Source: a virus (Duplodnaviria; Heunggongvirae; Uroviricota; Caudoviricetes). From it: a stretch of DNA of 26,421 nucleotides. Positions 3,101-24,706 of the stretch are shown here, piece by piece; the first letter of the stretch is position 1, and each line of letters opens with the position of its first letter. The notes beneath the pieces were generated by a model. That model did no database searches and had not been told where the DNA came from. It was given only the letters and a program-made list of their open reading frames with translations. Location: IMG/VR virus record IMGVR_UViG_3300006204_000001; one strand, written 5' to 3'. A program made the position numbers and the translations under genes.

Positions 3101-3883
3101 TTATATTTTTAATATTTTATTAACTGCAACCTCATTACAAGTAAAAGTACCATTTCCTACTGAGTATAATACATCTGCACCAATTACTCTATATCTTAAT
3201 CCATAAATTAATCTATTATCACTAAATCCACTATTTATCCATATTTCTACTGTAGGACCAGGATCAAAGTTATCAATAAATGTTCTTACAAAAGGCCCCC
3301 AAGCAGAACCTGAAACTTTACATTCAAATCTATTTTCCCATCCATTAGTTGTATGAGCTTCTATTCTTATTTGAGCTTTACATCCTGAAGGAGATAGATC
3401 AAAATATATATCATATGGACACCATGGTACATATTTAGCCGGTATTCCAATAGATCCTTCAAATATTTCAATAGTTTCATAATGGTTTATAACAAAATTA
3501 CATTTTGAATCATGATCACCAAATAAATTATAATTCATATCCCGATAACCTCTATATAGTTTTAACCACATCATTTTATAATCAATTTCTGATGGATAAA
3601 CAGTAGATATATTTTGTTTATTTGATAATAAACTATTTACTTCGCTTTCTGTATAATATCTATCATCATGATTATGTGTAGTTAATGAATAATTACTATG
3701 AGTATGATTAGTTTTACTATATACACTATCATGATTATGTGTAGTTAATGAATAATTACTATGAGTATGATTAGTTTTACTATATACACTATCATGGTTA
3801 TGGTTAATATTTGCTTTATTTTTTAATTCATTCTTTGTTAATCTTATTAATTCTTTTATACCATTATCCTTTAATTGTTTCAT
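3101..3883 (-). CDS. HxH-repeat, tail-fibre-like protein, copy A (260 aa)
   Basis: GGAGG RBS. N-terminal HNHD/HTH repeats and HNHDDRYYTESEVNSLL resemble Firmicute phage fibre motifs. N-terminus is shared with 24047..24706. Confidence 0.65.
   Translation of the reverse strand: MKQLKDNGIKELIRLTKNELKNKANINHNHDSVYSKTNHTHSNYSLTTHNHDSVYSKTNHTHSNYSLTTHNHDDRYYTESEVNSLLSNKQNISTVYPSEIDYKMMWLKLYRGYRDMNYNLFGDHDSKCNFVINHYETIEIFEGSIGIPAKYVPWCPYDIYFDLSPSGCKAQIRIEAHTTNGWENRFECKVSGSAWGPFVRTFIDNFDPGPTVEIWINSGFSDNRLIYGLRYRVIGADVLYSVGNGTFTCNEVAVNKILKI
3665..3796. repeat. 63-bp perfect tandem repeat (2 copies plus a partial) encoding 21-aa NHDSVYSKTNHTHSNYSLTTH
   Basis: Units start at 3665, 3728 and 3791. Confidence 0.95.
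3695..3883. repeat. 189-bp dispersed direct repeat, copy 1 (partner 24518..24706)
   Basis: Manual alignment: 91 bp identical, then 7 mismatches in 98 bp. Confidence 0.92.
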
Positions 3884-3903
3884 ATTATTATACCTCCAAT
3901 ATA

Positions 3904-3946
3904 CTAAATAATTACTATATTTATAATAAATATAGTAATTATTTAG
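3904..3946. promoter_or_regulatory. Perfect 20-bp inverted repeat upstream of HxH copy A
   Basis: CTAAATAATTACTATATTTA-TAA-TAAATATAGTAATTATTTAG; function unknown. Confidence 0.6.
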
Positions 3947-3956
3947 ATTTATAATT

Positions 3957-3987
3957 TATAGGGAATAAAATCCCTATATATTTTTTT
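3957..3987 (+). terminator. Intrinsic terminator between divergent genes
   Basis: TATAGGGA/TCCCTATA stem followed by a T-tract. Confidence 0.7.
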
Positions 3988-4008
3988 ATCTTATTTCGTC
4001 CTAGTAGA

Positions 4009-4020
4009 AACAGAAGCATA
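4009..4020 (+). promoter_or_regulatory. Candidate late promoter AACA-N6-TA
   Basis: AACAGAAGCATA matches the AR9 late-promoter pattern as I recall it and lies upstream of the head block. Confidence 0.45.
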
Positions 4021-4076
4021 AGAATCATACAGGTATATGTATTCAAAAAATTATTTTAGAAAAGGAGAGATAAAAT

Positions 4077-5846
4077 ATGTTTACGTTTGGAGATACAAAA
4101 AATGATATTCTCTTAACTGAAGGAATTATGGATAATGTATTAAATACTGCTGGTGATGCAGTAGGTGTTGATACAAATAAGTTCAAAAAAGCTTGGAATG
4201 ATGCAGCAGATCCTGACATTCATCCTAATAAAGTAAGTGATTCTGAAGTTACTCATAGAAGAATGAAGTTAATGAATAAGGCAGGTAATACTGCAGTAAA
4301 TAAAATTGATAAAACTACTTCTGACATAAGTAAGCTTACAGATAATAGATCACTTGTAGCAAGAGCTAAAAATTCTATTATGATGTTCTCTTGTTATATT
4401 TCACAGTCAACACCAGTAAATGTTGCACAAATTGAATCAGAATTATTTGCTAGAGTATATACATCTTTAGTACAATCAGTATTATCTCAAAATCAAATAT
4501 TGGATGAATCTGAGGCACATAATATGTCATTTTTAAAGAATTATCATACCAATTTGAGAGAAGCTGTTGATGTATTTGTAAATCAATTTTATGAGCCTAT
4601 TGATAATATCGATGAAATGATTTGTGAATCTGTATTTCTTGAACAAAAGATTACAAATAATCTTAGTGTTACATTTAGTGCTATTCCGAGAAATAATGAA
4701 ATTATTAATATGGAAAGTGCTATATTTGTACAAGATCCTATAATAGGTTTTGAATCTTTATATGCAGAAGCAGAAGAAATACAATCTGAAAATAAAGATA
4801 ATTTCTATACATTATCAGATAATGATTTTAGAGATATGGCTATGAATCAACTTAATATGACATCATCAGATAGAAAATTAGCCGATATGTCTGAAATTGA
4901 TTTAATTAATAGATATGGCGATTATGATAGCAGGTCTGGTAAGAATGTTCCAAATGGTAGTGAGTATAGTGATGCAATAGATGCAAGGAATGATCTTAAT
5001 AATCAGATTGATAATAAAATAGCTGATATTAAAGATGCTATTAAGAGTGGAGAAGATAAAAATTATAGTATGTATAAATATGTAAATGGAAGATTCGCTA
5101 GATGTGATAGATCTGCAACCGTTAAAAATATTAGTAAGCGAGTAGATGCTCCTATTATTTTGAGAGATCATGATATTAAAAAGATCAATGCTATGGCTCC
5201 ATATACAATTAAAGCTCAATTCAAATTAAGAGATAATAAGGGAAATATTACTGGTGAAGTAGAATATGTAATAGGAGTAAAATGTATATTACATCTTATT
5301 CGTACCGAAGATTTAGTAGATGATCTACCAGAGCTCGTTACAGGTAAGATTAAGAAATTACAAAAAGTAAGATACAAAACAGGTGAAATTACATTCTTCG
5401 ATTATTTATTTAATAAAAAAGGATTAAAATCTGATGCAGCTAAGAGAATTAATCATAATAAGAGATGGATAAATAATCTTAAGAGATTATCTGAATATAG
5501 ACAAGCTCATGGTGGGTTTTTAAAGAAACCTATAGAAGATATAACAAGTGGTCATGTTCCCATTCCTAATGGAACACTTATACTTACTCAATCCGATGTA
5601 TCTACATTAACATCCACTACAGGTATTGATCTAAGTGAATCTTCTAATGCTATTAAATTAGCAAAGAATTTATTTTTAATGGCAGTTGTAATTATTGATA
5701 GTTCTGCAGGTACAATGAGAGTTCTGTTTCCTGATGAATCATCATCATGGAATGTTTATTCGTTATCATCAATTGAAGCTGATTTAGCTAAGACTGATAA
5801 TAATAAACTTATGCAGGAATTAAATAGAGTAGTAAATACAAGATAG
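4077..5846 (+). CDS. Probable virion head/inner-body protein, 589 aa
   Basis: Sits in an operon with the prohead protease; hydrophobic-X-E|small motifs (LTE|G, LRE|A, ICE|S, YAE|A). Confidence 0.6.
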   Translation: MFTFGDTKNDILLTEGIMDNVLNTAGDAVGVDTNKFKKAWNDAADPDIHPNKVSDSEVTHRRMKLMNKAGNTAVNKIDKTTSDISKLTDNRSLVARAKNSIMMFSCYISQSTPVNVAQIESELFARVYTSLVQSVLSQNQILDESEAHNMSFLKNYHTNLREAVDVFVNQFYEPIDNIDEMICESVFLEQKITNNLSVTFSAIPRNNEIINMESAIFVQDPIIGFESLYAEAEEIQSENKDNFYTLSDNDFRDMAMNQLNMTSSDRKLADMSEIDLINRYGDYDSRSGKNVPNGSEYSDAIDARNDLNNQIDNKIADIKDAIKSGEDKNYSMYKYVNGRFARCDRSATVKNISKRVDAPIILRDHDIKKINAMAPYTIKAQFKLRDNKGNITGEVEYVIGVKCILHLIRTEDLVDDLPELVTGKIKKLQKVRYKTGEITFFDYLFNKKGLKSDAAKRINHNKRWINNLKRLSEYRQAHGGFLKKPIEDITSGHVPIPNGTLILTQSDVSTLTSTTGIDLSESSNAIKLAKNLFLMAVVIIDSSAGTMRVLFPDESSSWNVYSLSSIEADLAKTDNNKLMQELNRVVNTR

Positions 5847-5860
5847 GAGGATATAATATA

Positions 5861-7027
5861 ATGAATCAGTATAGTATATGTAATAATTATCTTGAGATTG
5901 TTGCAGGTACGGGTAATAAAACTCATCCTAAATATGTAACAGAAGCAAAATCTATTGCTTCTAGTGGAACAGAGGGTCTTGGAAAATTAAAAAACTTTAT
6001 TACATCGATAGAAAAGATTTCTTCTTCTAGTGCCTGTAAGGATTCAAGAATTTCAGAATCAAAAGGTAATATTAAAAACTTTTCAGGATATGAAAATATC
6101 ACTACTGCAATGACATTTTTAAAGAGTAATTTATCTGGTGTAAATTTAATGAAAGATCTTATATCATTATATGATAATTTGATTAAATACCAACCATTAT
6201 ATTCCGATGGATATACAAAAGGAGTTAGACTTGTAATACTTGAATATGAAAGTGCAGTATATATGTTAGTAACAGGTTTATCTATGGCTATGGCTAATAA
6301 TATAGATGTAGTATCTACTGGTACTAAAGTAAAGATTGTTAAAAAATCTTCTGATACACATGGTACTATATCAACTGTAATATCTGATCTTGTTAAGCAA
6401 TTAAATAAATCAGAGCATAAAACATATCTTGAGAATATGGTAAAGGCAAGAGATAATGTTAAAATCGATACAAGTAAAATTGATAAAAAGGAAGAAAATA
6501 AGGATGATAAAGAAATTAAAGAATCATATATGGTTGAATCTCTTGTATCAGATACTCTTGAATTAATTAATACTGGTATAAGTTTAGTTGGTTCTGGTGT
6601 TAGATTTGTAGGAACAGCTACTCGTGCGGTTAAAGATTCTATTTTTGGTATTGTACCATTAATAAGATCTGTAATGTATCTTAAATATAAAAAGAAAGCA
6701 GATACTATATTAGCATTAGAACAACAAGTTCAATTCATTCAGCAAAATATTAATCAACTTGAGAATAGGAGTAATATTGATCCTAAAAAGAAAGAGCATA
6801 TTATAAAAAAACAACAGGCTCATATTGATGCATATAAGAAGAGAGCAGAGAAATTAAGAGCAGAATTAATGGAAACCGAAAAAGATGCTTCTAATGCTAT
6901 AAAGAATGATAATCCAAATATGTCTAAAGAAGATACTCCCAATAAAGATGATGATTTTGTATTAGAAGGAAAAACTATTAAAGAAATATTTACAGAAAAT
7001 GAGGTAAATAGCAACACTCTTTCATGA
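5861..7027 (+). CDS. Probable virion head protein, 388 aa
   Basis: RBS overlaps the upstream TAG; IKE|S, MVE|S and VLE|G motifs; C-terminal coiled-coil-like segment. Confidence 0.6.
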   Translation: MNQYSICNNYLEIVAGTGNKTHPKYVTEAKSIASSGTEGLGKLKNFITSIEKISSSSACKDSRISESKGNIKNFSGYENITTAMTFLKSNLSGVNLMKDLISLYDNLIKYQPLYSDGYTKGVRLVILEYESAVYMLVTGLSMAMANNIDVVSTGTKVKIVKKSSDTHGTISTVISDLVKQLNKSEHKTYLENMVKARDNVKIDTSKIDKKEENKDDKEIKESYMVESLVSDTLELINTGISLVGSGVRFVGTATRAVKDSIFGIVPLIRSVMYLKYKKKADTILALEQQVQFIQQNINQLENRSNIDPKKKEHIIKKQQAHIDAYKKRAEKLRAELMETEKDASNAIKNDNPNMSKEDTPNKDDDFVLEGKTIKEIFTENEVNSNTLS

Positions 7028-7061
7028 AGCCACTAATTATTCTGATATAAAAGATGATATT

Positions 7062-8492
7062 ATGAAAAAATATATACCTAATATTTATCAAAAATCAATA
7101 TATACAATTGACTATGATAAGTTGAAAAAGAAAGGTATAAAATTATTATCATTTGATATTGATGAAACTATTAGTGGCGATAGAGAAAAAGAACCACCTA
7201 AACCAGCTATTACATTATTTGAAGACTTAAAGAAGAAAGGATTTAAAATTATTTTATTCACAAATGCTAGTGAAATTAGAGCAAGAAAATTTGCTACATT
7301 ACTAGATGTTCCATTCTATTGTGAATGTAAAAAACCTTTAGGAACTAACTTCAATAAAGCTTTAAAGAAATATAATCTTAAACCATCACAAATGTGTCAT
7401 ATTGGTAATAATAGATTCGATGATGTAGCTGGAGGTAATTCACTAGGTATTATAACATGCTTAGTTAATAATGTATCAGGTAAAGTTGATAATCCTGAAG
7501 AGATAAAGTTGGTGAATGAATTACGGAGAAGAAAATTGATAACTAAAAATAAATTCTATCAGATAAATGAATCTGTAGATATGAATGTTGTTAATAAAAG
7601 AAAAGAAAATTCTATTAATAAATTTATTAATAGGATGGATAAATCAAATAATTTCTCATTTCCATGGAATAAAAACAAATCGACTATTAATAATGATTTA
7701 GAATTATATAAACCTAAATTAGATGCATTATATGATGAATTATTTGAAATTACTAAACAACAATCAATAGTTCTTAATTTCAGTTATGCTCAAATGACAG
7801 AACCTCCAAGTTTTAGAACTAGAACTAAACTTGGTGGTACGCCATATTGGCCTGCTGAAATGGCCCCATCCTATCCAAAAGATATGCTGTTATATGCTCA
7901 AATTAATTTTGCAGAATTACCAAATCTAAAAGGATATCCATCATCTGGTATTTTACAATTCTTTACTGATGGATGGTTGTGGGATGGAACAAATGATTAT
8001 TCAAGACATAAAACAATTTATCATCCAAATGTGTTTGAAAACATATTACAGTTTAATTATATACCAAAAACAACTATAACTGACAATGATGATGAAGCAC
8101 CATTTAAAGGTGTGATACCATTATTAGGATCAAAGATGGAATATCAATGTATCCAAATGGACGTTGAAGGTTTTGATAATGTAATATATCCATTAATTGA
8201 AAAACATCTTGGTATTAAGACTGATAGTATATATTATGGATTACCAAAAGGATGTTATAGTTATCTGTATAATAAAATAAATGCAACTGGATGGGGTAAT
8301 AGAATAGGTGGTTATCCTAACTTTACTCAATCTGATGCTACTGATGATAATTATAATACACTATTATTCCAAGTTGATAGTAATAAAGATATCTTATGGG
8401 GTGATGATGGTATATCTAATATCTTTATTAATGATAAAAAATTATTAAATAAAGATTTTAGTGATTGTCTATATACATGGGATTGTTATTAA
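7062..8492 (+). CDS. Fusion of YqeG-like HAD IIIA phosphatase and YwqG/DUF1963-like domain
   Basis: N-terminal SIYTIDYDKLKKKGIKLLSFDIDET, FTNA, KKP, IGNNRFDDVAGGNSLG. C-terminal TKLGGTPYWP, AQINFAELP, GILQFF, RIGGYPNFTQ, LLFQVDS, WGDDG, DFS..YTWDC. Confidence 0.85.
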   Translation: MKKYIPNIYQKSIYTIDYDKLKKKGIKLLSFDIDETISGDREKEPPKPAITLFEDLKKKGFKIILFTNASEIRARKFATLLDVPFYCECKKPLGTNFNKALKKYNLKPSQMCHIGNNRFDDVAGGNSLGIITCLVNNVSGKVDNPEEIKLVNELRRRKLITKNKFYQINESVDMNVVNKRKENSINKFINRMDKSNNFSFPWNKNKSTINNDLELYKPKLDALYDELFEITKQQSIVLNFSYAQMTEPPSFRTRTKLGGTPYWPAEMAPSYPKDMLLYAQINFAELPNLKGYPSSGILQFFTDGWLWDGTNDYSRHKTIYHPNVFENILQFNYIPKTTITDNDDEAPFKGVIPLLGSKMEYQCIQMDVEGFDNVIYPLIEKHLGIKTDSIYYGLPKGCYSYLYNKINATGWGNRIGGYPNFTQSDATDDNYNTLLFQVDSNKDILWGDDGISNIFINDKKLLNKDFSDCLYTWDCY

Positions 8493-8507
8493 GGAGGTGA
8501 AATCAAA

Positions 8508-9377
8508 TTGATTAATAAAAGTAAACTTGCAGATATGAATACATTTTGTTATATCCAGGAGCAAACTTCATCTGAAGAAGATTACACTAACTTTGGTTAT
8601 CAAGTTTATGATAAAGGTAATAGGTTTTATGTAACTTTTAAAGCTGTATTACAATCATTTGAAGTTAAGAATCGTAATGGTCGTGAATATGATCAAAACA
8701 ATGTATGGGATAAAATTGTTAATGATGAATATATTCAGGATCAATTACGTAAGAATTCTTGGATGGGTGAAATTGATCATCCAGCTCCAATTTATAAAGA
8801 TGATGAATTAACAGTACAAAGGATAGCTAATCCTGATCCAAAGTTAACATCACATTATATTAGATCTCCTAGATTAAATAGTAATCTTTTAGAAGCTAAT
8901 ATACAAACAGACTCAGGTACAGAAGCAGGAATGAATTTTGCTATTAAAATAGTAGATGGTAAAATTATTCCATGTTTCTCTGCTAGAGTATTAGGTTCAG
9001 CTAAAACTGTAGGTGGAAGACTTGTAGTATGGGTAAATAAATTAGTTACATATGATTGGGTATTTTATCCTAGTCATAAAGAAGCTGAAGCTAGAATTAA
9101 CCAACCTAGAATGGAAGCTGTAGATGACTTTACTAAATTTACAGGATGTAAAGTAATTTATTTTCCTGAACTTGCAAGAATGGCAGCAAATAATTCTAGA
9201 GAAACAGAATATTTATGTGAATCATTTGGTCTTACAATAGATGATGTAATAGGTATTACAGAATCGGGTAATTCAATTGTTATACAAGAGAATTCAAATA
9301 TATATGCTCAACCTATTATGGATTCTACTATTAAGAATAAAACACAAAAGATGATGAAAGATTGGTTACATAGATAA
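8508..9377 (+). CDS. Prohead core protease (T4 gp21-like)
   Basis: NRNGREY, GEIDHP, FSARVLG and TYDWVFYPSH motifs; TTG start with AAGGAGGTG RBS. Confidence 0.88.
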   Translation: MINKSKLADMNTFCYIQEQTSSEEDYTNFGYQVYDKGNRFYVTFKAVLQSFEVKNRNGREYDQNNVWDKIVNDEYIQDQLRKNSWMGEIDHPAPIYKDDELTVQRIANPDPKLTSHYIRSPRLNSNLLEANIQTDSGTEAGMNFAIKIVDGKIIPCFSARVLGSAKTVGGRLVVWVNKLVTYDWVFYPSHKEAEARINQPRMEAVDDFTKFTGCKVIYFPELARMAANNSRETEYLCESFGLTIDDVIGITESGNSIVIQENSNIYAQPIMDSTIKNKTQKMMKDWLHR

Positions 9378-9382
9378 TATAT

Positions 9383-9418
9383 TAGAGGTATCCAATTGGA
9401 TACCTCTATTTTTCTTTT
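9383..9418 (+). terminator. Intrinsic terminator
   Basis: Perfect 26-bp palindrome TAGAGGTATCCAATTGGATACCTCTA followed by a T-tract. Confidence 0.85.
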
Positions 9419-9425
9419 ATATATT
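9418..9425 (+). promoter_or_regulatory. TATATATT candidate early promoter
   Basis: Recurrent intergenic motif; the following ATAAAAGTGA is echoed at 23397. Confidence 0.5.
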
Positions 9426-9478
9426 ATAAAAGTGATGGTAATAAATTAAGTGTTAAAAAAACGAAAGGAGAATTATTT

Positions 9479-10510
9479 ATGAAACACATTATTATTCCAG
9501 AAAAAGCTAATGTAAAACTTTTGTCAAAAGCTATTTATAGCTTATTAGCAGGATTAGATTATTCTGTTGGTAAAGTTACAGTAGATGAAACAAATTATCA
9601 GTACTATATCCGTTCACAGGCAGATGGAGATGGTACAACTATCTATTCCATGTTTGCTTTTAAGACAACAGGAACATTTGAAATGAATATACCATTGTAT
9701 ATCTCAGACATGATTATTATGCCTAATTTCTCAATGCGGCTGATTAACATTAGTAAAGGAATGACAAAATTACATGATGCTAATGATGATATCAACGTTT
9801 TGTATGGTCGGTTTTCAGACTACAGAGAATTGTTCATTGAAATCTCTAATCATATCATTGAAATGTATTTGCACGAAAAATGCAAATTGACTGTATATTG
9901 TCTTGCAAAGAAATTTCCAAATGGAGATAGACATCAGGTTCTAAATGGTGCCATATTCGGGTTGTATTGGAATAAATCAAAACAGCAGATGGAATTTATT
10001 GATCTAATGAAAGAGGATAATACTTTATGGGTGATTCCTAATATTGAATCTGATACTGTACAAAAAAATGGCACAAGAATAATTCAGTCATCACAAACTG
10101 TATATGTTTGTATTCCTATTGAAAAAGCTGTTAAAATTTTTCAGGATAACCAGGAAGAAGCTGAAAAGTTAGCATCTACAGCTGATTCTATTGCTGCAAA
10201 GTTATCTGACAAGAAAACTTTGGTATATGAATTAGTAGATGAACATTCCAAGCCGATTCATTATGGTGACGGATATTCTGTAAAAGTTTTCATGTTTGAA
10301 AAGCCGATTACTAAAAAGAAATTCAAAGAAGTTCTTAAAGATAAGAAACTGGCTGTGAATGAGGAGGAGGAATATCCATATGGCAACTATGTGAATATTT
10401 ACGCAGGTAAGTTTGATGATTTCAAGAACCGTACGAAAGTAGAAGATTGGGATTATGAAACAATATCCAATGTATGGACATGGCAGGAGATTCATCAGTA
10501 TACCGATTAA
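9479..10510 (+). CDS. Hypothetical protein, 343 aa; probable paralog of 10575..11555
   Basis: AAAGGAG RBS; YCLA..F......LNG..F motif at aa 140-160. Confidence 0.8.
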   Translation: MKHIIIPEKANVKLLSKAIYSLLAGLDYSVGKVTVDETNYQYYIRSQADGDGTTIYSMFAFKTTGTFEMNIPLYISDMIIMPNFSMRLINISKGMTKLHDANDDINVLYGRFSDYRELFIEISNHIIEMYLHEKCKLTVYCLAKKFPNGDRHQVLNGAIFGLYWNKSKQQMEFIDLMKEDNTLWVIPNIESDTVQKNGTRIIQSSQTVYVCIPIEKAVKIFQDNQEEAEKLASTADSIAAKLSDKKTLVYELVDEHSKPIHYGDGYSVKVFMFEKPITKKKFKEVLKDKKLAVNEEEEYPYGNYVNIYAGKFDDFKNRTKVEDWDYETISNVWTWQEIHQYTD

Positions 10511-10526
10511 TAAATAACACATAATA

Positions 10527-10558
10527 TGGGGATTCAGTTGAATCCCCAATTTTTATTT
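10527..10558 (+). terminator. Intrinsic terminator
   Basis: TGGGGATTCA/TGAATCCCCA stem followed by a T-tract. Confidence 0.8.
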
Positions 10559-11598: not shown

Positions 11599-11808
11599 TT
11601 ATTGAGCAAAATCATAAGGTAAACTTGTCATTGTTTCATAATCATCTGCTGTAATTTTATTTTGTACTCTATATTCAATTAAGTATACTACACGTTCTAC
11701 AGGTCTATATGTTTTTTGTATAGTCTCCAATGCTAACTTTTCTGCATCTGTTAAATTTGTTCTATTAGAAAAGTCTACATAAAATTTAGACTGATCGTAA
11801 AGAATCAT
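11599..11808 (-). CDS. 69-aa protein with XkdX-like C-terminal motif
   Basis: NKITADDYETMTSLPY resembles the XkdX pattern GKIT.EEY..ITG..Y; ATGA overlap with the upstream gene. Confidence 0.5.
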   Translation of the reverse strand: MILYDQSKFYVDFSNRTNLTDAEKLALETIQKTYRPVERVVYLIEYRVQNKITADDYETMTSLPYDFAQ

Positions 11809-12557
11809 GGTTCTTCCTCCTTTAATAATTCTTCAAATTTTGTATAATTTTTATTTACAATTTTAATAAACTTAACGAATCGAGTTAAAGATTGCATCAT
11901 TTCTTCTTTAAGTTTATCCTTTTCTCTGCTTTCTTGATTAATATTTAATGCAGATCCATCATCTTTTATTTCTACTTCTAAACCGAGAGATGGAATATAA
12001 AAATCAGGGATATAAAAATGTATATCTCCTTTATAATGATAAATATATGTATGTGGTGAAGGTGAAAATAAATCAGATGAAGGCCAATATAATTTATAAT
12101 CTAAATATTTCAAAAAATCTAATTCATATGATGATGAATATGTAAATTTAGATTTATTATCAGACCATATATATTCACCTGATATTTTTCTATTAGCTAA
12201 CATTTTCTTTTGCATTTCTGGATCATCTAATAAATATACTTTGCCATATTTATCTATCATTCTTTTATCACGTTCTTCCTTATATTTTTGCTTACACATT
12301 GGATTATTACAGAAACGTGAATATTTCATTGTTTTTTCATTGAAATCTGTTTCATTATGACATTCTATACAACTACCTTTATCTTTTCCAGTTAATAAAT
12401 AATAAAAATATCTATAACCATTCATTCCTTCTGGTAATAATAATCGATGTTTAGTATCATAATGTTTACCCATTTTATGTTTAGCATCTATAACTTGTTT
12501 CCTATTTGAAGGTATAGGAATATTATATTTACAAAAGTTGCATCTATATATCTTCAT
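11805..12557 (-). CDS. Zn-finger PD-(D/E)xK (TnsA-like) endonuclease
   Basis: CNFC..H...H, CIEC..FCNNPMC, SSYELDF and YIPDFYIPSLGLEVEIKD; AAGGAG RBS. Confidence 0.75.
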   Translation of the reverse strand: MKIYRCNFCKYNIPIPSNRKQVIDAKHKMGKHYDTKHRLLLPEGMNGYRYFYYLLTGKDKGSCIECHNETDFNEKTMKYSRFCNNPMCKQKYKEERDKRMIDKYGKVYLLDDPEMQKKMLANRKISGEYIWSDNKSKFTYSSSYELDFLKYLDYKLYWPSSDLFSPSPHTYIYHYKGDIHFYIPDFYIPSLGLEVEIKDDGSALNINQESREKDKLKEEMMQSLTRFVKFIKIVNKNYTKFEELLKEEEP

Positions 12558-17479: not shown

Positions 17480-17485
17480 TAATTT

Positions 17486-17632: not shown

Positions 17633-17634
17633 AT

Positions 17635-17680
17635 AAATAGAGGGAATTATCCCTCTATTTATTTTTTATTTTATTTTTTA
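17635..17680 (+). terminator. Intrinsic terminator
   Basis: AAATAGAGGGA/TCCCTCTATTT stem followed by a T-tract. Confidence 0.85.
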
Positions 17681-17682
17681 CT

Positions 17683-17690
17683 TATATATT
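17683..17690 (+). promoter_or_regulatory. TATATATT candidate early promoter
   Basis: Recurrent motif; the TTTTTTACTTATATATTTTAAT context is repeated at about 24843. Confidence 0.5.
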
Positions 17691-17719
17691 TTAATGATGA
17701 ATAAAGGAGGTATTATAAT

Positions 17720-18070
17720 ATGATAACTAAAGTAAACTATGATAGTACAAAAGAAAAGAGTGTAATAAATGGATTTTTAACTGAACTGAATAATTGTATA
17801 GATCAATATAATTCTATACTAGAAGAAGTCAATGAGGCTAGCGTATGGATTGATCATGAATATGAAAGAGCTGTTAAAGAAAATCTATTTATTATTCATG
17901 ATAGAGCATCTGTGTTTAATGAATCTTATATTTATAATATAATATCAGATGAATTAAAAGTATCATTAAATACTCAATTGGATACTATTAGAAATGAAAT
18001 ACTAATAGAAAGAGAAAAACAACAGATACGAATGAAAAATAATGGAATTAAATTAAATGAAGATATTTAA
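17720..18070 (+). CDS. Hypothetical protein, 116 aa
   Basis: AAAGGAGG RBS. Confidence 0.8.
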   Translation: MITKVNYDSTKEKSVINGFLTELNNCIDQYNSILEEVNEASVWIDHEYERAVKENLFIIHDRASVFNESYIYNIISDELKVSLNTQLDTIRNEILIEREKQQIRMKNNGIKLNEDI

Positions 18071-18158
18071 AAACTTTTCTATGTTCATAAAAGTTGAATT
18101 TCAAAAATAAACGTTTCAAATTATTAAAAATAAAAATTTGAAAAGGAGGGAATAAAAA

Positions 18159-18668
18159 ATGAATCATTATAATATGAAATATCATAATATTACTACTGAT
18201 GATATGAAAAATGGTGATGGATTACGTGTAGTATTATGGGTATCAGGATGTTCACATCATTGTGATGGATGCCATAATCCATTTACTTGGGATCCAAATT
18301 CTGGTTTAGAATTCACTCAGGAGACAGAGGATGAATTAATGGATAAATTAAATTATCCATATATATCAGGATTGACATTATCAGGAGGTGATCCATTTTT
18401 TCATAGTAATATAGTAGATGTAGGAAAATTAATAGGAAAAGTAAAATTAAATTTTCCTAAAAAGACAATATGGGTATATACTGGATTTAAATATGAAGAT
18501 ATTTATCCTAATATAAAATATTTTATATCTAATATAGATGTAATAATAGATGGAAGATTTGTTAAGGATTTAGCTGATGTAAAATATAAATGGGCAGGAT
18601 CAACAAATCAGAGAATTATTGATGTAAAGAAAACAATAAAGACAGGAGAGATAGTAAGTTATGTATAG
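18159..18668 (+). CDS. nrdG: Anaerobic ribonucleotide reductase activating protein (radical SAM)
   Basis: NGDGLRVVLWVSGCSHHCDGCHNP, GLTLSGGDP, WVYTG and GSTNQRIID; overlaps the nrdD start. Confidence 0.96.
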   Translation: MNHYNMKYHNITTDDMKNGDGLRVVLWVSGCSHHCDGCHNPFTWDPNSGLEFTQETEDELMDKLNYPYISGLTLSGGDPFFHSNIVDVGKLIGKVKLNFPKKTIWVYTGFKYEDIYPNIKYFISNIDVIIDGRFVKDLADVKYKWAGSTNQRIIDVKKTIKTGEIVSYV

Positions 18669-21600
18669 AATAATTAAAAAGGATGGTACATTAGAAGATT
18701 TTGATAACAATAAGATTATTAATGCAGTAACTAAATCAGCAGGTAGAATGATGATTCAATTATCAGATGATGATTTTAATAATATCATTAATAAAATTAT
18801 TTCTAAAATAGAAGATTTTGAAATGTCTGATATTAAAGTAGATGATATGCATTCATTTGTAGAAGCCACATTAGAGGAGTTTAATCCTATTATAGCAAAA
18901 TCTTATAGAGATTATAGAAATTATAAAAAAGATTTTGTACATATGATGGATAAAGTATATGAACGATCACAAGCTATACGATATATAGGTGATAGAGAAA
19001 ATGGTAATACAGATTCTGCATTAGTGGCAACAAAAAGATCATTAATTTATAATGAATTAAATAGAAGACTATATAAACAATTCTTCATGACTGTAGAAGA
19101 AAGACAAGCATGTAGAGATGGCTATATTTATATACATGACCAATGTTCACGACTTGACAGCCTAAACTGCTGTCTATTCCGTATGGATAATGTAATGAAA
19201 GATGGATTTGAGATGGGTAATGTTTGGTATAATGAACCTAAAACATTGGATACTGCATTTGATGTTATGGGTGACATTATATTATCAGCAGCATCGCAAC
19301 AATATGGTGGGTTTACAGTTCCAGAAGTAGATAAATTATTATCATATTACGCAGAGAAATCATATAATGTATATTATAATGAACACAAATCCAATTTAGA
19401 AGAATTTATTATGAACAACGATGTTCTTCATAATAAATGTGATGAATATGCAATGAAGAAAGTTAGACGGGAATATGAACAAGGATTTCAAGGTATTGAA
19501 ATGAAATTAAATACTGTAGGAAGTAGTAGAGGAGATTATCCTTTTATTACTATGACATTTGGATTAGCTACTGATAAATTTGGTAAGATGGCTTCAGAAG
19601 TATTTTTAGATGTTCATATGAAAGGTCAAGGAAAGAAAGGATTTAAACGCCCAGTATTATTTCCTAAATTGGTATTTTTATATGATAAAAATTTACATGG
19701 AGAAGGAAAAGAATTAGAAGATTTATTTAATAAAAGTATTGAATGTTCATCATCAACCATGTATCCAGATTATCTTTCATTAACTGGAGATGGATATGTT
19801 CCTTCTATGTATAAAAAGTATGGTAAAGTAATCAGTCCTATGGGATGTGTTCAAAAAGATGAACTTGTAACATATAAATTCAATGGAAATTTATATGTTG
19901 AGAGTATAGGAAGGATGTGGAATAGAATTAAGTGTGCATTTCCACAAAAAATACAAATTGAAGGACAACCTCATTTGTATATTGATGTAGATCCAAATTT
20001 AGTTCAAATATATGATAAAGAAAAAGGTTTTGTAAAAACTAAAAGAATGGTAAAAAATAGGAGTAATAATTGGGCTAGAGTTACATTATCAAATGGAAGA
20101 ATATTAGAATGCACATTAGATCATCCGTTACCTGTAATAGGAAAGGGTCGAACATTTGTATCAAATTTACAAATAGGTGATAAAATTCCATTGAATAAGA
20201 CTCAATATGTTGAAGAAACATATAATGGAACTAATATTGATTATGCATGGATGCTAGGAATAATATTATGTGATGGATGTTATGATGATCAACTAAATGT
20301 TACAATTAATTCTTATGGAGAAGATGAAATTGTTAATGCTTTAGCTCCAATTATGCAAAAATATTATAATCTTGAAATGATTATAAATGAGCAGAAAAGG
20401 GGTAAAAAAGGAAATTATTTAGAGTTGAAATTTCCTCATTCTAGTCATGTATGTAGAGATATGATTCATATATTTGAAGGATTACAAAAAGTGCATAGAC
20501 ACATACCTAATTTTATATTTAATTCAAGTAAAGAAGTTAGATTAGCATTTTTAGCTGGAATGATTGATGCAGATGGGTATATTAATGATAATAATCATGT
20601 ATCTACAATTCAGCTTGGATCTACTAATAAAGAATTAGCTTTACAACAAATGGCTCTTATGCAATCATTAGGGATTAGATCAAATATTTATTCTAATAAA
20701 TATAATAAAGTATTTCCGAACAAAATAAGGTATAAAGTTGAAGGAGAAGCTATAAGTGAATTAGTAAAGTATATAAAATGTAAAAAGAAAATTGAACATT
20801 TCAATGAGAATGTTCGTACTAATATTTCTAAATCTGATTTAGATGAAGGAGTGGTAACAAAGATAGAAATATTATATAACAGAATTGATTGGAGTTATGA
20901 CGTTACAACAGAATCCGATTATTTTGATATTTCTGGAATATATTCTCATAATTGTCGAGCATTTTTATCACCTTGGTATGAAAAAGGTGGCATAGAACAA
21001 GAGAATGAAGATGACCAACCAGTATTTCTCGGTAGATTTAATATAGGAGCTGTATCATTACATCTTCCTATGATATATATGAAATCTAAAAAGGAGAATA
21101 AGGATTTTTATGAAATATTAGATTATTATCTTGAAATGATTAGACAGCTGCATATTCGTACATATGCATATCTTGGAGAAATGAGAGCATCTACTAATCC
21201 ATTAGGATTTTGTGAAGGTGGATTCTTAGGTGGCAATCTTAAACCTAATGACAAGATTAAACCTTTATTAAAGGCTATGACAGCTTCTTTTGGTATTACT
21301 GCATTTAATGAATTGCAAGAACTTTATAATGGAAAATCTATTAGAGAAGATGGGATGTTTGCATTAGATGTATTAAAATATATAAATAATAAAGTTAATG
21401 AGTTTAAAAAAGAAGACAATAATCTATATGCAATTTATGGTACTCCTGGAGAAAACCTTTGTAGTTTACAAGTTAAACAATTTAGACAAATATATGGCAT
21501 AATAGAAAATGTTTCTGATAGACCGTATGTGAGTAATTCATTTCATTGTCATGTAACTGAGGATGTTACTCCTATAGAAAAACAGAATATTGAAAATAAA

Positions 21601-21912
21601 TATTGGAATTATTGTAATGGAGGAAAAATACAATATGTAAAATATCCAATTGATTATAATATAAAAGCAATAAAAACATTGGTAAAGAGAGCAATGGAAA
21701 TGGGTTATTATGAAGGTGTGAATCTATCACTTGCATATTGTGAAGAATGTGGACATACAGAATTGGAAATGGATGTATGTCCAAAATGTGGAACAAGAAA
21801 TATATGTAAAGTAGATAGAATGAATGGATATTTAGCATATAGCAGGGTACATGGGAGTAGCAGACTTAGTGATGGTAAAATGGCTGAAATAGCTGATAGA
21901 GTAAGTATGTAA
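18661..21912 (+). CDS. nrdD: Class III ribonucleotide reductase with ATP cone, intein-containing
   Basis: ATP cone, YIHD, FPKLVF, SPMG|C...HN|CRAFLS, YGTPGE, SNSFHCHV, CEECG..CPKCG and RMNGYL. Confidence 0.97.
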   Translation: MYRIIKKDGTLEDFDNNKIINAVTKSAGRMMIQLSDDDFNNIINKIISKIEDFEMSDIKVDDMHSFVEATLEEFNPIIAKSYRDYRNYKKDFVHMMDKVYERSQAIRYIGDRENGNTDSALVATKRSLIYNELNRRLYKQFFMTVEERQACRDGYIYIHDQCSRLDSLNCCLFRMDNVMKDGFEMGNVWYNEPKTLDTAFDVMGDIILSAASQQYGGFTVPEVDKLLSYYAEKSYNVYYNEHKSNLEEFIMNNDVLHNKCDEYAMKKVRREYEQGFQGIEMKLNTVGSSRGDYPFITMTFGLATDKFGKMASEVFLDVHMKGQGKKGFKRPVLFPKLVFLYDKNLHGEGKELEDLFNKSIECSSSTMYPDYLSLTGDGYVPSMYKKYGKVISPMGCVQKDELVTYKFNGNLYVESIGRMWNRIKCAFPQKIQIEGQPHLYIDVDPNLVQIYDKEKGFVKTKRMVKNRSNNWARVTLSNGRILECTLDHPLPVIGKGRTFVSNLQIGDKIPLNKTQYVEETYNGTNIDYAWMLGIILCDGCYDDQLNVTINSYGEDEIVNALAPIMQKYYNLEMIINEQKRGKKGNYLELKFPHSSHVCRDMIHIFEGLQKVHRHIPNFIFNSSKEVRLAFLAGMIDADGYINDNNHVSTIQLGSTNKELALQQMALMQSLGIRSNIYSNKYNKVFPNKIRYKVEGEAISELVKYIKCKKKIEHFNENVRTNISKSDLDEGVVTKIEILYNRIDWSYDVTTESDYFDISGIYSHNCRAFLSPWYEKGGIEQENEDDQPVFLGRFNIGAVSLHLPMIYMKSKKENKDFYEILDYYLEMIRQLHIRTYAYLGEMRASTNPLGFCEGGFLGGNLKPNDKIKPLLKAMTASFGITAFNELQELYNGKSIREDGMFALDVLKYINNKVNEFKKEDNNLYAIYGTPGENLCSLQVKQFRQIYGIIENVSDRPYVSNSFHCHVTEDVTPIEKQNIENKYWNYCNGGKIQYVKYPIDYNIKAIKTLVKRAMEMGYYEGVNLSLAYCEECGHTELEMDVCPKCGTRNICKVDRMNGYLAYSRVHGSSRLSDGKMAEIADRVSM
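19846..20952 (+). mobile_element. 369-aa intein with LAGLIDADG homing endonuclease
   Basis: Starts at Cys after SPMG; CTLDHP block B; WMLGIILCDG and FLAGMIDADG; ends YDVTT..SHN followed by Cys. Confidence 0.95.
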
Positions 21913-21916
21913 TTAG

Positions 21917-21960
21917 AATAATATTGGAGTGTATAATACACTCCAATATTATTTATTTTA
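21917..21960 (+). terminator. Intrinsic terminator
   Basis: 17-bp stem AATAATATTGGAGTGTA/TACACTCCAATATTATT. Confidence 0.85.
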
Positions 21961-22063
21961 TAATTATAGACAACAATGATCTTGTAACATGGATCCTTTA
22001 TCTTTTATTTACATAGAGAAGACCCTACAGAAGCCCATGGTGTAAAACATTTAAAATGAAAAT

Positions 22064-22137
22064 GGGAAAAACTCGCCAACTACTATTATATTTGAGAAAA
22101 ATTTATATAATATAAAAGCTAATGGCGAGATTTTCCC
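22064..22137. repeat. 15-bp inverted repeat (1 mismatch) around a 44-nt AT-rich loop
   Basis: GGGAAAAACTCGCCA at 22064..22078 and TGGCGAGATTTTCCC at 22123..22137. Confidence 0.8.
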
Positions 22138-22211
22138 TAAATATTATATTATAAATTTCAATGATAATATTGGATACACCAATGATGATCTGTATAGTTA
22201 TATACTATAAT

Positions 22212-22219
22212 TATATATT
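22212..22219 (+). promoter_or_regulatory. TATATATT candidate early promoter
   Basis: Recurrent motif. Confidence 0.45.
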
Positions 22220-22293
22220 ATATTTATATATGAAAAGGAGGCATATATAAATATAGTATATAAAAATTTTAATTAACGAGAAGGAGAAATAGT

Positions 22294-22767
22294 ATGAAAA
22301 TGAAAAGTGGCATAACTTTTAAAGATTTAAAAGATGCAATAAATTTATTACGAGAACTTAATATATCAGATTACTCATTCGAGGATGATGAATATAGTTT
22401 ACAAATTGATATTTCATTTAATAATTTAGATATGATTCGTATAAGTAATCTTAAAGGTGATAAAAAAATTAATATGTTTTTTTATTATTTAGAGAGGAAT
22501 CCTAATATTAAAGAAATCGAATATGATATGATGATTTTATATGAAATCATCTATAATAAATATGGAGTAGTATCAAATGATGATATGATAAAAGGGTCTA
22601 CGTGTTTTTATACACATCAAGACAATCTAATATGTAATAATCATTTCTTATATTTAACTTTTGAAGGATTTAACTTAGATCCAAGACCTTTAATAATTAA
22701 TTCCATAGTGAATATTTATAAAAATTCCAATGAAAACATAAAACTCTCAGATGAAGATTTTTGCTAA
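22294..22767 (+). CDS. Hypothetical protein, 157 aa
   Basis: GAAGGAG RBS. Confidence 0.78.
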   Translation: MKMKSGITFKDLKDAINLLRELNISDYSFEDDEYSLQIDISFNNLDMIRISNLKGDKKINMFFYYLERNPNIKEIEYDMMILYEIIYNKYGVVSNDDMIKGSTCFYTHQDNLICNNHFLYLTFEGFNLDPRPLIINSIVNIYKNSNENIKLSDEDFC

Positions 22768-22857
22768 GAAATTTTTAATTGAAGCAAAAAATAAAGGATT
22801 GAAAGTCTCAATAAATATTAATGGCACAATTTATGAATAAAGAAAGGAAATAATGAA

Positions 22858-23313
22858 ATGATTAAGATTGATATTAAGTATTTTTCAAACGATATTGACA
22901 AAATAACAAAAATTGAAAAAGGTAATTGGATTGATTTGAGAGCAGCAGAAACAATTGAATTGAAACAAGGTGATCATAAATTAATACCATTGGGTATTGG
23001 AATGATATTACCAGTAGGATTTGAAGCTCATATAGTACCTCGTAGTTCAACATTTAAAAGATATGGAATTATACAGACTAATCATATAGGTGTTATTGAT
23101 GGTCCTGATAGAGAAACTGGCATAGGTGGTTATTGCGGTAATAATGATCAATGGTTTATGTCTGTATATGCTACCAGAGATACTGTTATCAATAAAAATG
23201 ACAGAATATGCCAATTTAGAATAATAGAACAACAACCTACAATAGAATTTATTGAAGTGGATAATCTTGGAGATGTAAATAGAGGTGGATTTGGTACTAC
23301 TGGTGTAAATTAA
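22858..23313 (+). CDS. dut: Trimeric dUTPase with motif III insertion
   Basis: WIDL, PRSS, GVID...Y.G, RICQF and RGGFGTTG. Confidence 0.92.
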   Translation: MIKIDIKYFSNDIDKITKIEKGNWIDLRAAETIELKQGDHKLIPLGIGMILPVGFEAHIVPRSSTFKRYGIIQTNHIGVIDGPDRETGIGGYCGNNDQWFMSVYATRDTVINKNDRICQFRIIEQQPTIEFIEVDNLGDVNRGGFGTTGVN

Positions 23314-23330
23314 TAATATTAATAATAGAT

Positions 23331-23365
23331 TGGGGTTCATGTTGATAGAGGAACCTCCCCCCCCC
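23331..23365 (+). terminator. Atypical hairpin running into a C9 tract
   Basis: GGGGTTC/GAACCTC stem with a 12-nt loop; C9 at 23357..23365. Confidence 0.4.
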
Positions 23366-23388
23366 ATCGTATATTTCTCTTATTATAT

Positions 23389-23396
23389 TATATATT
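23389..23396 (+). promoter_or_regulatory. TATATATT candidate early promoter
   Basis: Followed by CTAAAAGTGAT, echoing the site at 9418. Confidence 0.5.
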
Positions 23397-23445
23397 CTAA
23401 AAGTGATACATAGTTTAGAATATTAAAAATAGGAGGATAAAAACT

Positions 23446-23802
23446 ATGAATGCAATTACAGAGGTAAGTTTCAAAGTATCGGAAAACTGTGAATTGGAAG
23501 ATGTTGTAGGAATTATTTCTATAAGAGATAATATTAGATCAAGAAGGATTGGAGCTAATCTTTCCACATCTTTCGAAATCATGCCTAAATCATTACACAA
23601 TGATATTGCAGAATCATTAGACAATAATTTTGCAGGTGGGTGTACATTTAAGCTGAAATGTATTGAAACTGGTAAGATTATTGATAGTGATGATTGTGTA
23701 GCTAATATCACATTACGATCAGGTGATAAAGTTCAGATTCAAGTAGCATGGAATGAAGTGGATGGTATTGCTACCGATTGGTTGAATGTGAGTATTTTCT
23801 AA
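23446..23802 (+). CDS. Hypothetical protein, 118 aa
   Basis: AGGAGG RBS. Confidence 0.8.
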   Translation: MNAITEVSFKVSENCELEDVVGIISIRDNIRSRRIGANLSTSFEIMPKSLHNDIAESLDNNFAGGCTFKLKCIETGKIIDSDDCVANITLRSGDKVQIQVAWNEVDGIATDWLNVSIF

Positions 23803-23816
23803 GAAGGAATAAAGAA

Positions 23817-23948
23817 ATGAAAAGAGAAGATTATGTACCATCAAAGGAACTTCAGGATATCATTAAAAGATCGTTAGAGGATGAGATTATGTTTAGACAA
23901 AATATCCAAACATTTAATAATTATATCGAATGTCTAATGAATCAGTAA
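23817..23948 (+). CDS. 43-aa protein missing from the ORF track (MKREDYVPSKELQDIIKRSLEDEIMFRQNIQTFNNYIECLMNQ)
   Basis: GAAGGA RBS right after the upstream stop; a terminator follows. Confidence 0.65.
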   Translation: MKREDYVPSKELQDIIKRSLEDEIMFRQNIQTFNNYIECLMNQ

Positions 23949-23969
23949 AATTACAACTAAATATTGAGA

Positions 23970-23999
23970 AAGGGTGATTATAATCACCCTTATTTTTTT
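23970..23999. terminator. Terminator between convergent genes
   Basis: Perfect 22-bp palindrome AAGGGTGATTATAATCACCCTT followed by a T-tract. Confidence 0.85.
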
Positions 24000-24046
24000 A
24001 TAATATTATCTATTATAAAATAAAATATTGAAGAAAACGTTAAAAA

Positions 24047-24706
24047 TTAATAATTTCCTTTAAAATGTTCAATATAATCATTTACATCATAAATAACTTC
24101 TATACTAGTTTTATATTTATTTAAAAATTTTACATGAATATTTATTATGCTATGATTTGTATGAATTAATTGAGTATGATAATCATATAAATTCCCTTCT
24201 CTACATATATCTATATTTATAAAAGCAAATTCTGTATTGAAAGTTACAGTACTTTCAAGATTTATTCCATTTGTTTTTGTTAATATTGGTTTTATAGGAT
24301 GAATACTATCAGTACTACTTGGATAATTTATAAAATTAGTATTTATAGTTTCAATAATTTCATAATTAAAATTTCTAAATTCAATATTATACATTAAATA
24401 GTCATCATAAAATTCATCAACACTATAAAAGAATTTAAATAATACAGATTTTATATTATGATTATTTATATTAACTGATAAATATTTATCGTCGTGATTA
24501 TGAGATGATGCTGCATAACTATGAGTATGATTAGTTTTACTATATACACTATCATGATTATGTGTAGTTAATGAATAATTACTATGAGTATGATTAGTTT
24601 TACTATATGCATTATCATGGTTATGATTAATATTAGCTTTATTTTTTAATTCATTTTTTACTAATCTTATTAATTCTTTTATACCATTATCCTTTAATTG
24701 TTTCAT
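24047..24706 (-). CDS. HxH-repeat, tail-fibre-like protein, copy B (219 aa)
   Basis: GAGGT RBS; first 63 aa nearly identical to copy A, C-terminus unrelated. Confidence 0.65.
   Translation of the reverse strand: MKQLKDNGIKELIRLVKNELKNKANINHNHDNAYSKTNHTHSNYSLTTHNHDSVYSKTNHTHSYAASSHNHDDKYLSVNINNHNIKSVLFKFFYSVDEFYDDYLMYNIEFRNFNYEIIETINTNFINYPSSTDSIHPIKPILTKTNGINLESTVTFNTEFAFINIDICREGNLYDYHTQLIHTNHSIINIHVKFLNKYKTSIEVIYDVNDYIEHFKGNY
24518..24706. repeat. 189-bp dispersed direct repeat, copy 2
   Basis: See 3695..3883. Confidence 0.92.

Follow-up and report, generated by a model that had tools for sequence, protein, structure and literature searches.

A family of eight putative short fibre genes with a common N-terminal module and exchangeable C-terminal parts in an uncultured jumbo phage

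Introduction

In phages that carry multiple receptor-binding proteins (RBPs), these proteins share a short N-terminus (29 amino acids (aa) in KP32 group A) that is thought to dock at a common site, and their C-termini differ and are exchanged horizontally, as set out in part of PMC6872550; receptor-binding proteins with a conserved anchor and swapped C-termini are also treated in part of PMC10253068. This study concerns a 26,421-nucleotide (nt) stretch, referred to as the window, of the tailed-phage record IMGVR_UViG_3300006204_000001 from IMG/VR (Duplodnaviria; Heunggongvirae; Uroviricota; Caudoviricetes), in which two distant genes, here called A and B, begin with a common module containing histidine-x-histidine (HxH) motifs and continue with different C-terminal parts. 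The window covers positions 247616-274036 of the 289,059-bp virus record (GC 26.9%). Our analysis indicates that, in this AR9-like jumbo phage of the mouse gut, A and B probably belong to a set of eight paralogues that encode short homotrimeric fibres and would present swappable tips on a common socket.

The family resembles the multi-RBP systems of T7/K1F, K1-5, G7C, KP32/KP34, RaK2 and phiK64-1 in combining a conserved N-terminus with mostly unrelated C-termini, here in eight genes. Unlike in the K1-5/G7C/KP32/RaK2 type, the genes are not clustered but dispersed over 289 kb as inverted, insulated units with their own palindromes, and the conserved part includes an HxH stalk; the proteins are known here from their genes and would presumably be incorporated into virions. 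Compared with known conserved-anchor systems, this family differs in its genome-wide dispersal, insulated inverted cassettes, family palindromes, very short anchor and clear concerted evolution.

HxH motifs of three chains form octahedral Fe sites in the R-pyocin fibre shaft, in T4 gp37 and in the P2 and phi92 spikes, according to the part of PMC6116203 that covers them, and a further source on HxH metal chemistry in fibres is found in part of PMC11705849. As modelled here, the stalk would share with the shafts of T4 gp37, R-type pyocin, P2 gpV and phi92 the placement of HxH in register at the interface, whereas it consists of a 21-aa tandem repeat with a variable number of 1-6 HxH, has no detectable sequence similarity to solved chains, and its metal binding is predicted. 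A nearly identical HxH repeat, NHNHDSVYSKTNHTHSNYA, is present in P2-type tail-collar fibres (P0009; P0043, a 'phage tail protein' of Mucispirillum), in which a 150-aa PF12571 anchor takes the place of the 24-aa helix of the present family.

At the T-even distal tail-fibre locus, adhesin exchange is mediated by motifs, as part of PMC3157838 describes; in the present family, the joints fall on HxH codons or within a box of 81 nt. T-even exchange takes place at one locus and between co-infecting phages, whereas here eight dispersed paralogues within a genome lineage share a concerted module. The motifs were reportedly named 'His boxes' by Tetart et al. in 1996 and 1998; a literature search for the term returned no paper that uses it. 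PeSLs, which are short cassettes of promoter and stem-loop flanking non-essential genes of T4-type phages, mediate modular shuffling, as documented in part of PMC2839356. The palindrome hairpin upstream and the terminator hairpins around each family gene are reminiscent of these cassettes, but the palindromes here are AT-only and perfect, with arms of 15-26 bp whose sequence differs between copies, and sigma-70-like promoters are not enriched.

Results and Discussion

One N-terminus in eight dispersed genes

Gene A (gA260; 260 aa; window 3101-3883, genome 250716-251498) and gene B (gB219; 219 aa; window 24047-24706, genome 271662-272321) are both encoded on the minus strand, as defined by their open reading frames (ORFs) and translations. 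In a repeat search, window 3692-3891 matched 24515-24714 with 95% identity over 200 nt at a start-to-start distance of 20,823 bp, a similarity far beyond chance, and the same search revealed an internal copy of the module in A at a 63-nt shift. In the pairwise alignment, identity extends from a few bases 5' of the ATG to about codon 63, returns briefly over HNHDD(R/K)Y at codons ~69-76, and nothing is alignable beyond. The initial annotation had described near-identical first 63 codons followed by complete divergence; the sharing holds, but the point of divergence has to be moved, as the second shared patch reaches codon ~76. The two genes also differ in repeat make-up, as had been noted: with a for HNHDSVYSKTN, b for HTHSNYSLTT and b' for HTHSYAASS, the order of units is a-b-a-b-a' in A and a-b-a-b'-a' in B.

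Three parts can be distinguished in each gene, all on the minus strand. In A, the N-terminal helix MKQLKDNGIKELIRLTKNELKNKA (codons 1-24, window 3812-3883) was predicted by AlphaFold2 (AF2) at residues 2-24, the only part of the model with a predicted local distance difference test (pLDDT) value >50. It is followed by an HxH shaft (codons 28-76, window 3656-3802) with 5 HxH motifs, borne on units of 11 and 10 aa that alternate with a 63-nt period, and by a beta-rich, orphan variable C-terminal part of 184 aa (window 3101-3655). The corresponding parts of B are the N-terminal helix (codons 1-24, window 24635-24706; AF2 helix 2-24, with residues 8-24 in the trimer interface described below), the HxH shaft (codons 28-75, window 24482-24625) with 5 HxH motifs, and an orphan variable C-terminal part of 144 aa (window 24047-24481). 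A single orthologue, the database protein P0003, was found for the C-terminal part of A (180/187 identical), and the orthologue of B, P0006, is 95% identical. Another protein, P0069, was rejected as a homologue of the A tip; its 78% coverage of A consists of HDDRYYTESE repeats.

The 200-nt module gave 12 DNA matches in the genome, and a tblastn search combined with an ORF scan of the genome identified eight dispersed ORFs that start with a common N-terminus, MKQLKDNGIKELIRLVKNELK. In addition to A and B, these comprise g368 (own368; genome 90975-92081, minus strand, 368 aa), which has the helix only and is without HxH, g436 (own436; 92177-93487, plus, 436 aa), which has a diverged helix MKIFNNNGINQLIKLVK, g317 (own317; 113376-114329, plus, 317 aa), g159 (156496-156975, plus, 159 aa), g212 (own212; 187012-187650, plus, 212 aa) and g420 (own420; 287795-289057, minus, 420 aa), which spans the ends of the record. 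Six of the eight members bear HxH, with one motif in g420, three in g317, five each in A, B and g212, and six in g159. Their stalk alternates HNHDSVYSKTN (11 aa) with HTHSNYSLTT or HTHSYAASS (10 or 9 aa) in 21-aa units of 63-nt period, and each variable part starts right after an HxH(D)(D)xY box.

The genome search extends the pair to a family with one N-terminus, in line with the family proposed in the initial annotation. Its further claim of diverged C-termini is only partly retained: most are unrelated, and the B C-terminus matched no other C-terminus of the family, but weak similarity links some pairs (g212 with A, E 3e-4; g212 with g317, E 6e-4; g420 with g436, E 3e-13; g368 with g420, E 8e-8).

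Beyond this genome, the helix profile was compared with 1.84 billion representative proteins and gave 9 matches at E <=0.001, of which 8 start with the helix at residue 1; the ninth, a repeat protein, was set aside as unrelated. By this profile, the 24-34-residue N-terminus is confined to this phage lineage. Searches restricted to regions of the N-terminus gave 9 and 7 proteins. Among searches for related loci, one with the module alignment returned 98 pattern stretches and one with a 589-aa structural protein returned 3 stretches, none of them confirmed in either case, and 31 nt from the start of the gene, used as an exact pattern, had 0 matches in viral and metagenome contigs.

Trimer model and resemblance to tail fibres

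The trimer was modelled from three copies of B with our own 12-row family alignment and 4 Fe(II), in three runs and three controls. The interaction prediction score from aligned errors (ipSAE) was 0.56 in each of the three runs and 0.00 in the best control, with a partner pLDDT of at least 52, an overall pLDDT of 52-58 and agreement between runs in at least 66% of contacts. The ipSAE mark is reached by 20/30 solved pairs and 1/23 single chains, and is only rough in this setting because of the own alignment and the ligand. The confident interface comprises residues 8-78 of B, with in-register contacts at 23:23, 34:34, 35:35, 45:45 and 55:55. The model supports a parallel bundle of helix and HxH stalk in trimeric form, so that the trimer envisaged in the initial annotation is now predicted for B, having passed its controls. 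The helix positions of A that match B residues 8-24 fall in the interface of this model, which was run on B, and codons 1-24 of A are presumed to form a trimeric coiled-coil docking peptide.

A search of A against 5.8 billion proteins yielded 102 matches, of which 32 carry PF12571 and 5 carry PF12789; a Pfam scan of representatives confirmed these families as 'Phage tail-collar fibre protein, N-terminal' and 'Phage tail repeat like', respectively. In the PF12571 proteins, the HxH repeat of the NHNHDSVYSKTNHTHSNYA type stands after the 150-aa collar domain. Together with the section of PMC6116203 cited above, this bears out the HxH stalk as a genuine shaft motif of tail fibres. The comparison with PHROG, whose names are annotations and not tested functions, assigned A to phrog_28169 (E 2e-9) and to phrog_19961 'tail fiber protein' (E 1.1e-5), and the same two families were matched weakly or marginally by B (E 0.0015 and 0.015). 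Tail-fibre or minor-tail families were also matched by g212 (E 9.3e-5), g317 (E 3.3e-4), g368 (phrog_10316, E 6.5e-15) and g436 (phrog_3639, E 7.6e-4); no PHROG match was obtained for g420. A Cronobacter phage S13 product annotated as 'tail fiber protein proximal subunit' is matched by the g420 body (E 6e-9), as are tail-fibre genes in Klebsiella phages. With respect to gene neighbourhood, two tail-fibre-like genes flank g317, one of 1375 aa (phrog_892, E 1e-31) and the other of 644 aa, and g420 adjoins virion structural genes and a gene that is baseplate-wedge-like.

Concerted evolution of the module and exchange of C-terminal parts

Comparison with database proteins from related strains separated the history of the module from that of the tips. 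The modules of P0003 (A-type), P0005 (212-type) and P0006 (B-type) are mutually identical at 71-72/72 positions, whereas the same three modules agree with their orthologues in this genome at 63-69/72; the orthologous C-terminal parts agree at 180/187, 120/140 and 138/147. By these counts, the module of A has diverged further between orthologues (87.5%) than its tip has (96%), yet between paralogues it hardly differs. Orthology is tracked by residue 16, which is T in A and 212 but V in B, and lineage by residues 32-61, so the exchanged tract appears to be centred on the repeats. The alignments display a concerted pattern of evolution of the N-terminal module among paralogues, consistent with the proposal in the initial annotation that homogeneity is kept by gene conversion, with the proviso that these are metagenome assemblies, which can homogenise repeats.

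Additionally, related strains carry chimeric family members, as read from database proteins and contigs. In P0039 (395 aa), the sequence agrees without a difference with g420 as far as a box of 27 aa (core IPFSFGIDSNGNYGYKKIGADTV), and beyond the box it agrees just as fully with g436. The same architecture, with a g420 front and a g436 back, recurs in P0007 (417 aa) from a diverged strain with one additional 21-aa unit, and P0107 has the converse form, in which a g436-type N-terminus leads through the box to a g420-type end. In P0045, a 333-aa protein whose contig measures 289,277 bp, the standard module is joined at HNHD to g436 residues 133-436, and in P0017 the repeats and tip are those of g317, attached at HTH to a g436-type N-terminus. 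P0008 (212-type) and P0105 (159-type) each lack exactly one 21-aa unit. The family therefore has neither just two copies nor fixed C-termini: eight copies are present, their C-termini are exchanged between strains, and the diversification by C-terminal swaps that had been suggested from the two window genes is visible in P0039, P0007, P0107, P0045 and P0017.

At the DNA level, the box common to g420 and g436 measures 81 nt with 98.8% identity and has unalignable surroundings. Contigs from four other studies were compared at the g368-g436 locus; these are k=31 contigs, which break at every repeat. In X15, a contig joins 8230 to 8960, skipping 729 nt as in P0107, and depth is zero over the deleted part. 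Contigs of both X9 and X15 begin at 8574, which is the HNHD joint of P0045, and a loose end after 8284 in X9 runs on to the standard repeat, which is the P0017 form. At the DNA level the joints are borne out in this way, although not independently, since these contigs are perhaps the source data of the database proteins. Loose ends at the 81-nt box (8989, 9069) are accounted for by the g420 paralogue and neither prove nor exclude the P0039 form; because contigs break at every repeat, they do not decide between a recombinant and a mis-joined P0039.

With regard to enzymes, whole-record searches found no match to PF00078 (RVT_1), for which a control search was positive in 3/14 genomes, and none to PF00239 (Resolvase) or PF00589 (Phage_integrase), in agreement with the earlier remark that no reverse transcriptase (RT) or invertase was in view. 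Diversity-generating retroelements of the Mtd type need an RT, of which there is none here by PF00078. Switching by invertible segments (Gin/Cin/shufflon) differs as well, in that its recombinase was not found and the palindromes here lie upstream of the constant part and not at the junction. The RecA Pfam model had no match in the record, and a UvsX-like recombinase is encoded by an ORF at genome 178500-179807 (phrog_97, E 1e-27).

Proposed fibre family and alternative functions

In the arrangement that we propose, the 24-residue helix would form a parallel three-helix bundle and plug the fibre into a common docking site on the virion. In six of the eight members it would be followed by a stalk of 1-6 HxH, each motif of which would create a six-histidine metal site in the trimer that registers and stiffens the shaft, and the variable body or tip of 70-395 residues would be the ligand-binding end. 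Because of this build of helix, stalk and tip, the phage would show several different tips on one type of socket. Recombination, for which a UvsX-like recombinase is present, may homogenise the ~190-nt module across loci so that every tip stays compatible with the socket, and bodies and tips may move between loci at the repeats and at the second, 81-nt box. Stalk length would shift by steps of one 21-aa unit, and no RT or site-specific invertase would take part. Virion location, docking, receptor binding and a function for the palindromes are what we infer from these data.

Several results weigh against this proposal. The concerted-evolution and chimera data come from metagenome assemblies, in which repeats may be collapsed, homogenised or mis-joined; the genomes of origin of P0003, P0006 and P0007 are not established, and P0003, P0005 and P0006 are not known to belong to one genome. 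P0039, on a 4.5-kb contig and identical to both parents, may be a mis-join across the 81-nt box. The HxH joints have just 9-12 nt of exact identity in this genome, so the exchanges there may be microhomology events filtered by selection and not homologous recombination; these joints are perhaps simply the sole ones that yield a working fibre. The pass of the trimer model may partly reflect resemblance to solved HxH fibres, at a pLDDT of only 52-58, and the AF2 monomer models were unusable (mean pLDDT 33.2 for B and 32.3 for A). No Pfam family was assigned to A or B at E <=0.01, neither gene had a tblastn match in 50,697 cultured-phage records, and the module profile gave 0 matches at E <=1 among 177,635 distinct PDB sequences. 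A gp10-like or other docking domain was not detected by Pfam in 10 neighbouring structural proteins, the rest of the genome not having been scanned; a docking partner of a different adaptor type is possible. Half of the members (g159, g212, A and B) are located among replication, nucleotide-metabolism or head genes and not among tail genes, g159 and g212 amid replication and transcription genes. Finally, the listed runs include 0 RNA runs and the phage is uncultured, and the fibre proteins are members of the virion by presumption.

For the A tip, all ESM Atlas leads were below the threshold (<0.9), with feature scores of 0.87-0.89 (viral hypotheticals, 'pyocin knob', gp37_C, Gp34_trimer), and for the B tip they reached TM 0.44-0.58 to assorted beta-sandwich proteins, from a poor model (pLDDT 0.46). 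Pfam detected no depolymerase domains, and none of the eight members had a relevant Pfam match at E <=1, PF12789 and PF12571 included, so that the link to both families is indirect, via database proteins.

The location of the genes also bears on a different role for trimeric fibres, namely as decoration (head fibres, tail whiskers or hairs) that serves mucus or surface adhesion or virion stability instead of forming receptor-binding tips. The proteins are short (159-436 aa), A has head genes as neighbours (those of a virion structural protein, window 4077-5846, and of the S80 prohead protease), and just 3-4 of the 8 genes are near tail or baseplate genes. Jumbo phages of a 'hairy' kind are reported to exist. 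However, the bodies of g368, g420 and g436 are homologous to annotated tail-fibre proteins, the same HxH stalk is found elsewhere after the tail-collar domain PF12571, and quick exchange of tips between strains is expected of parts involved in host recognition, which together make a purely decorative role unlikely.

Gene organisation, palindromes and assembly

When arms of 11 bp or longer are counted, the genome holds 79 perfect palindromes, compared with 3-5 in shuffles, and most of the 79 are GC-cored terminator hairpins. Seven AT-only palindromes (perfect arms of 15-26 bp, loop 0-2) are located directly 5' of the ribosome-binding site (RBS) of all eight family genes, one of them exactly midway between the divergent g368 and g436 with 31 nt to each ATG. 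The palindrome of A (window 3904-3946) has an arm of 21 and a loop of 1 and that of B (window 24737-24768) an arm of 15 and a loop of 2, with RNA hairpin z values of -4.97 and -5.33, respectively; the others are at genome 121-173, 92112-92146, 113311-113357, 156443-156477 and 186949-186991. Arm sequences vary between copies while the symmetry is perfect, with RNA fold z values of -4.4 to -6.7. In a relaxed scan of 52 AT-rich palindromes, the seven of the family have the longest arms, terminator-type hairpins aside. Two further AT palindromes of similar size occur ahead of unannotated genes at genome 189688-189723 and 234239-234276.

All eight family genes lie on the opposite strand to both neighbours, as compared with 41/265 ORFs genome-wide (the 8 included, with crude ORF calling), and a terminator-like hairpin is found past the stop of each; in A and B another one stands past the palindrome. 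Around A, these are a bidirectional hairpin after the stop (window 3032-3058) and a plus-strand hairpin beyond the palindrome (window 3957-3978), which separates the unit from the next gene at 4077-5846. Around B, a plus-strand hairpin lies beyond the stop (window 23970-23991) and a bidirectional one beyond the palindrome (window 24814-24842). Terminator-like sites numbered 4 around A versus 0.3 expected in shuffles and 3 around B versus 0.0, whereas sigma-70-like promoters were not enriched around either gene (10 vs 14.2 expected and 15 vs 15.0, respectively). Because they are inverted relative to their neighbours and each is followed by a GC-cored terminator hairpin, the family genes form insulated single-gene units. 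A shared regulatory role of the palindrome is probable; it may act as an operator or promoter for the transcription system of the phage, as a hairpin of the 5' untranslated region, or as a PeSL-like recombination element.

This organisation would also be expected if the module were a mobile regulatory or leader cassette of palindrome, RBS and N-terminal coding sequence that captures unrelated ORFs, with no common structural role for the products. Every member is an inverted, insulated single-gene unit with its own palindrome, shuffling mediated by PeSLs is documented (in the part of PMC2839356 referred to above), and the segments in common vary from pair to pair: g212 and A agree over ~75 nt of upstream sequence and over the first 102 nt, g317 and g420 agree at 100% over the first 102 nt but not upstream, and g420 and g368 agree over 20 nt before the ATG. 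The conserved part, however, is mostly coding and forms a coherent helix and metal-binding shaft that models as a trimer, the palindrome arms are unconserved in sequence between most copies, and the downstream parts are fibre-like in at least three members; a cassette devoid of structural role is accordingly very unlikely. Cassette mobility and a fibre function are compatible and can both be true.

That the near-identity of the modules and the chimeras are artefacts of metagenome assembly, the real genes being more divergent and fixed, is highly improbable. In favour of it, every data set is an assembly, contigs end right at the repeats, where depth rises ~5-fold and 2.4-fold, the record's 104-bp terminal overlap is the repeated module and P0039 derives from a 4.5-kb contig, but the copies keep individual differences (A and B at 95%; g212/A and g317/g420 at 100% over 102 nt), the eight-type repertoire recurs in independent assemblies, one of 289,277 bp that contains P0005, P0015 and P0045 and one of 289,525 bp that contains P0013 and P0044, the X15 deletion with its zero depth and the HNHD joint at which both X9 and X15 contigs start are as described above, and the stalk-length variants differ by exact 21-aa units.

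The fibre family proposed here may be extended by a more far-reaching idea, which we regard as rather doubtful. In this scheme, the eight cassettes would form a recombinase-independent system of tip shuffling, in which the module and boxes serve as portable UvsX crossover sites, a crossover between g420 and g436 inverts a segment and thereby swaps two tips, and the palindromes co-regulate or select members. Since g420 is on the minus strand and g436 on the plus strand, a reciprocal crossover at their box would, by geometry, invert the intervening segment, an event that was not itself observed. If the scheme were true, tip shuffling would give standing heterogeneity of host range within the phage population.

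To our knowledge, almost nothing is known of host recognition in gut jumbo phages, and no member of this clade has been cultured. The eight small, self-contained fibre genes provide concrete candidates for host recognition, and tagged tips could be used to fish for binding bacteria. The 24-residue socket peptide with its length-adjustable metal-zipper stalk may represent a small natural scaffold that accepts very different tips. The concerted module combined with rapid tip exchange offers a testable case of a constant assembly interface with changing specificity, without a retroelement or invertase. Perfect palindromes specific to the family suggest an element for regulation or recombination among phages with RNA polymerases of their own.

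The phage and further features of the window

Of 24 public runs listed, 19 contain DNA of the phage; they come from 9 studies and are for the most part metagenomes of mouse gut or faeces. The 289,059-bp record is rated 100% complete and has an exact terminal overlap of 104 bp. This overlap (genome 1-104 and 288956-289059) is exactly the sequence with which the repeated module starts; it spans codons 1-34 of g420, and the opening 102 nt of g317 match it with 100% identity. Because its sequence is that of the repeated module, the overlap may be an assembly break at a repeat and not a physical terminal repeat.

According to Pfam and PHROG, the genes of the window encode a prohead protease of the S80 type, one part of an RNA polymerase beta subunit that is split, NrdD with an intein, NrdG, RNase H and dUTPase, a content that fits an AR9-like jumbo phage. 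The intein of NrdD (1083 aa, window 18661-21912) includes a homing-endonuclease domain of the LAGLIDADG type (Pfam Intein_splicing, LAGLIDADG_3, Hom_end), and NrdG (window 18159-18668) is directly upstream of NrdD. A 476-aa protein (window 7062-8492), flanked by head genes, combines a HAD-type hydrolase domain with DUF1963. An endonuclease-like gene of 250 aa (window 11805-12557, minus strand; phrog_15137, E 1e-46), which is on the opposite strand amid structural genes, may encode a homing endonuclease. Lastly, a repeat family (D3) pairs window 17670-17731 with 24839-24900 at 73% identity over 62 nt, and both copies, each ahead of a plus-strand gene, have in common the 26-nt stretch TTTATTTTTTACTTATATATTTTAAT, which may be a promoter-type motif.

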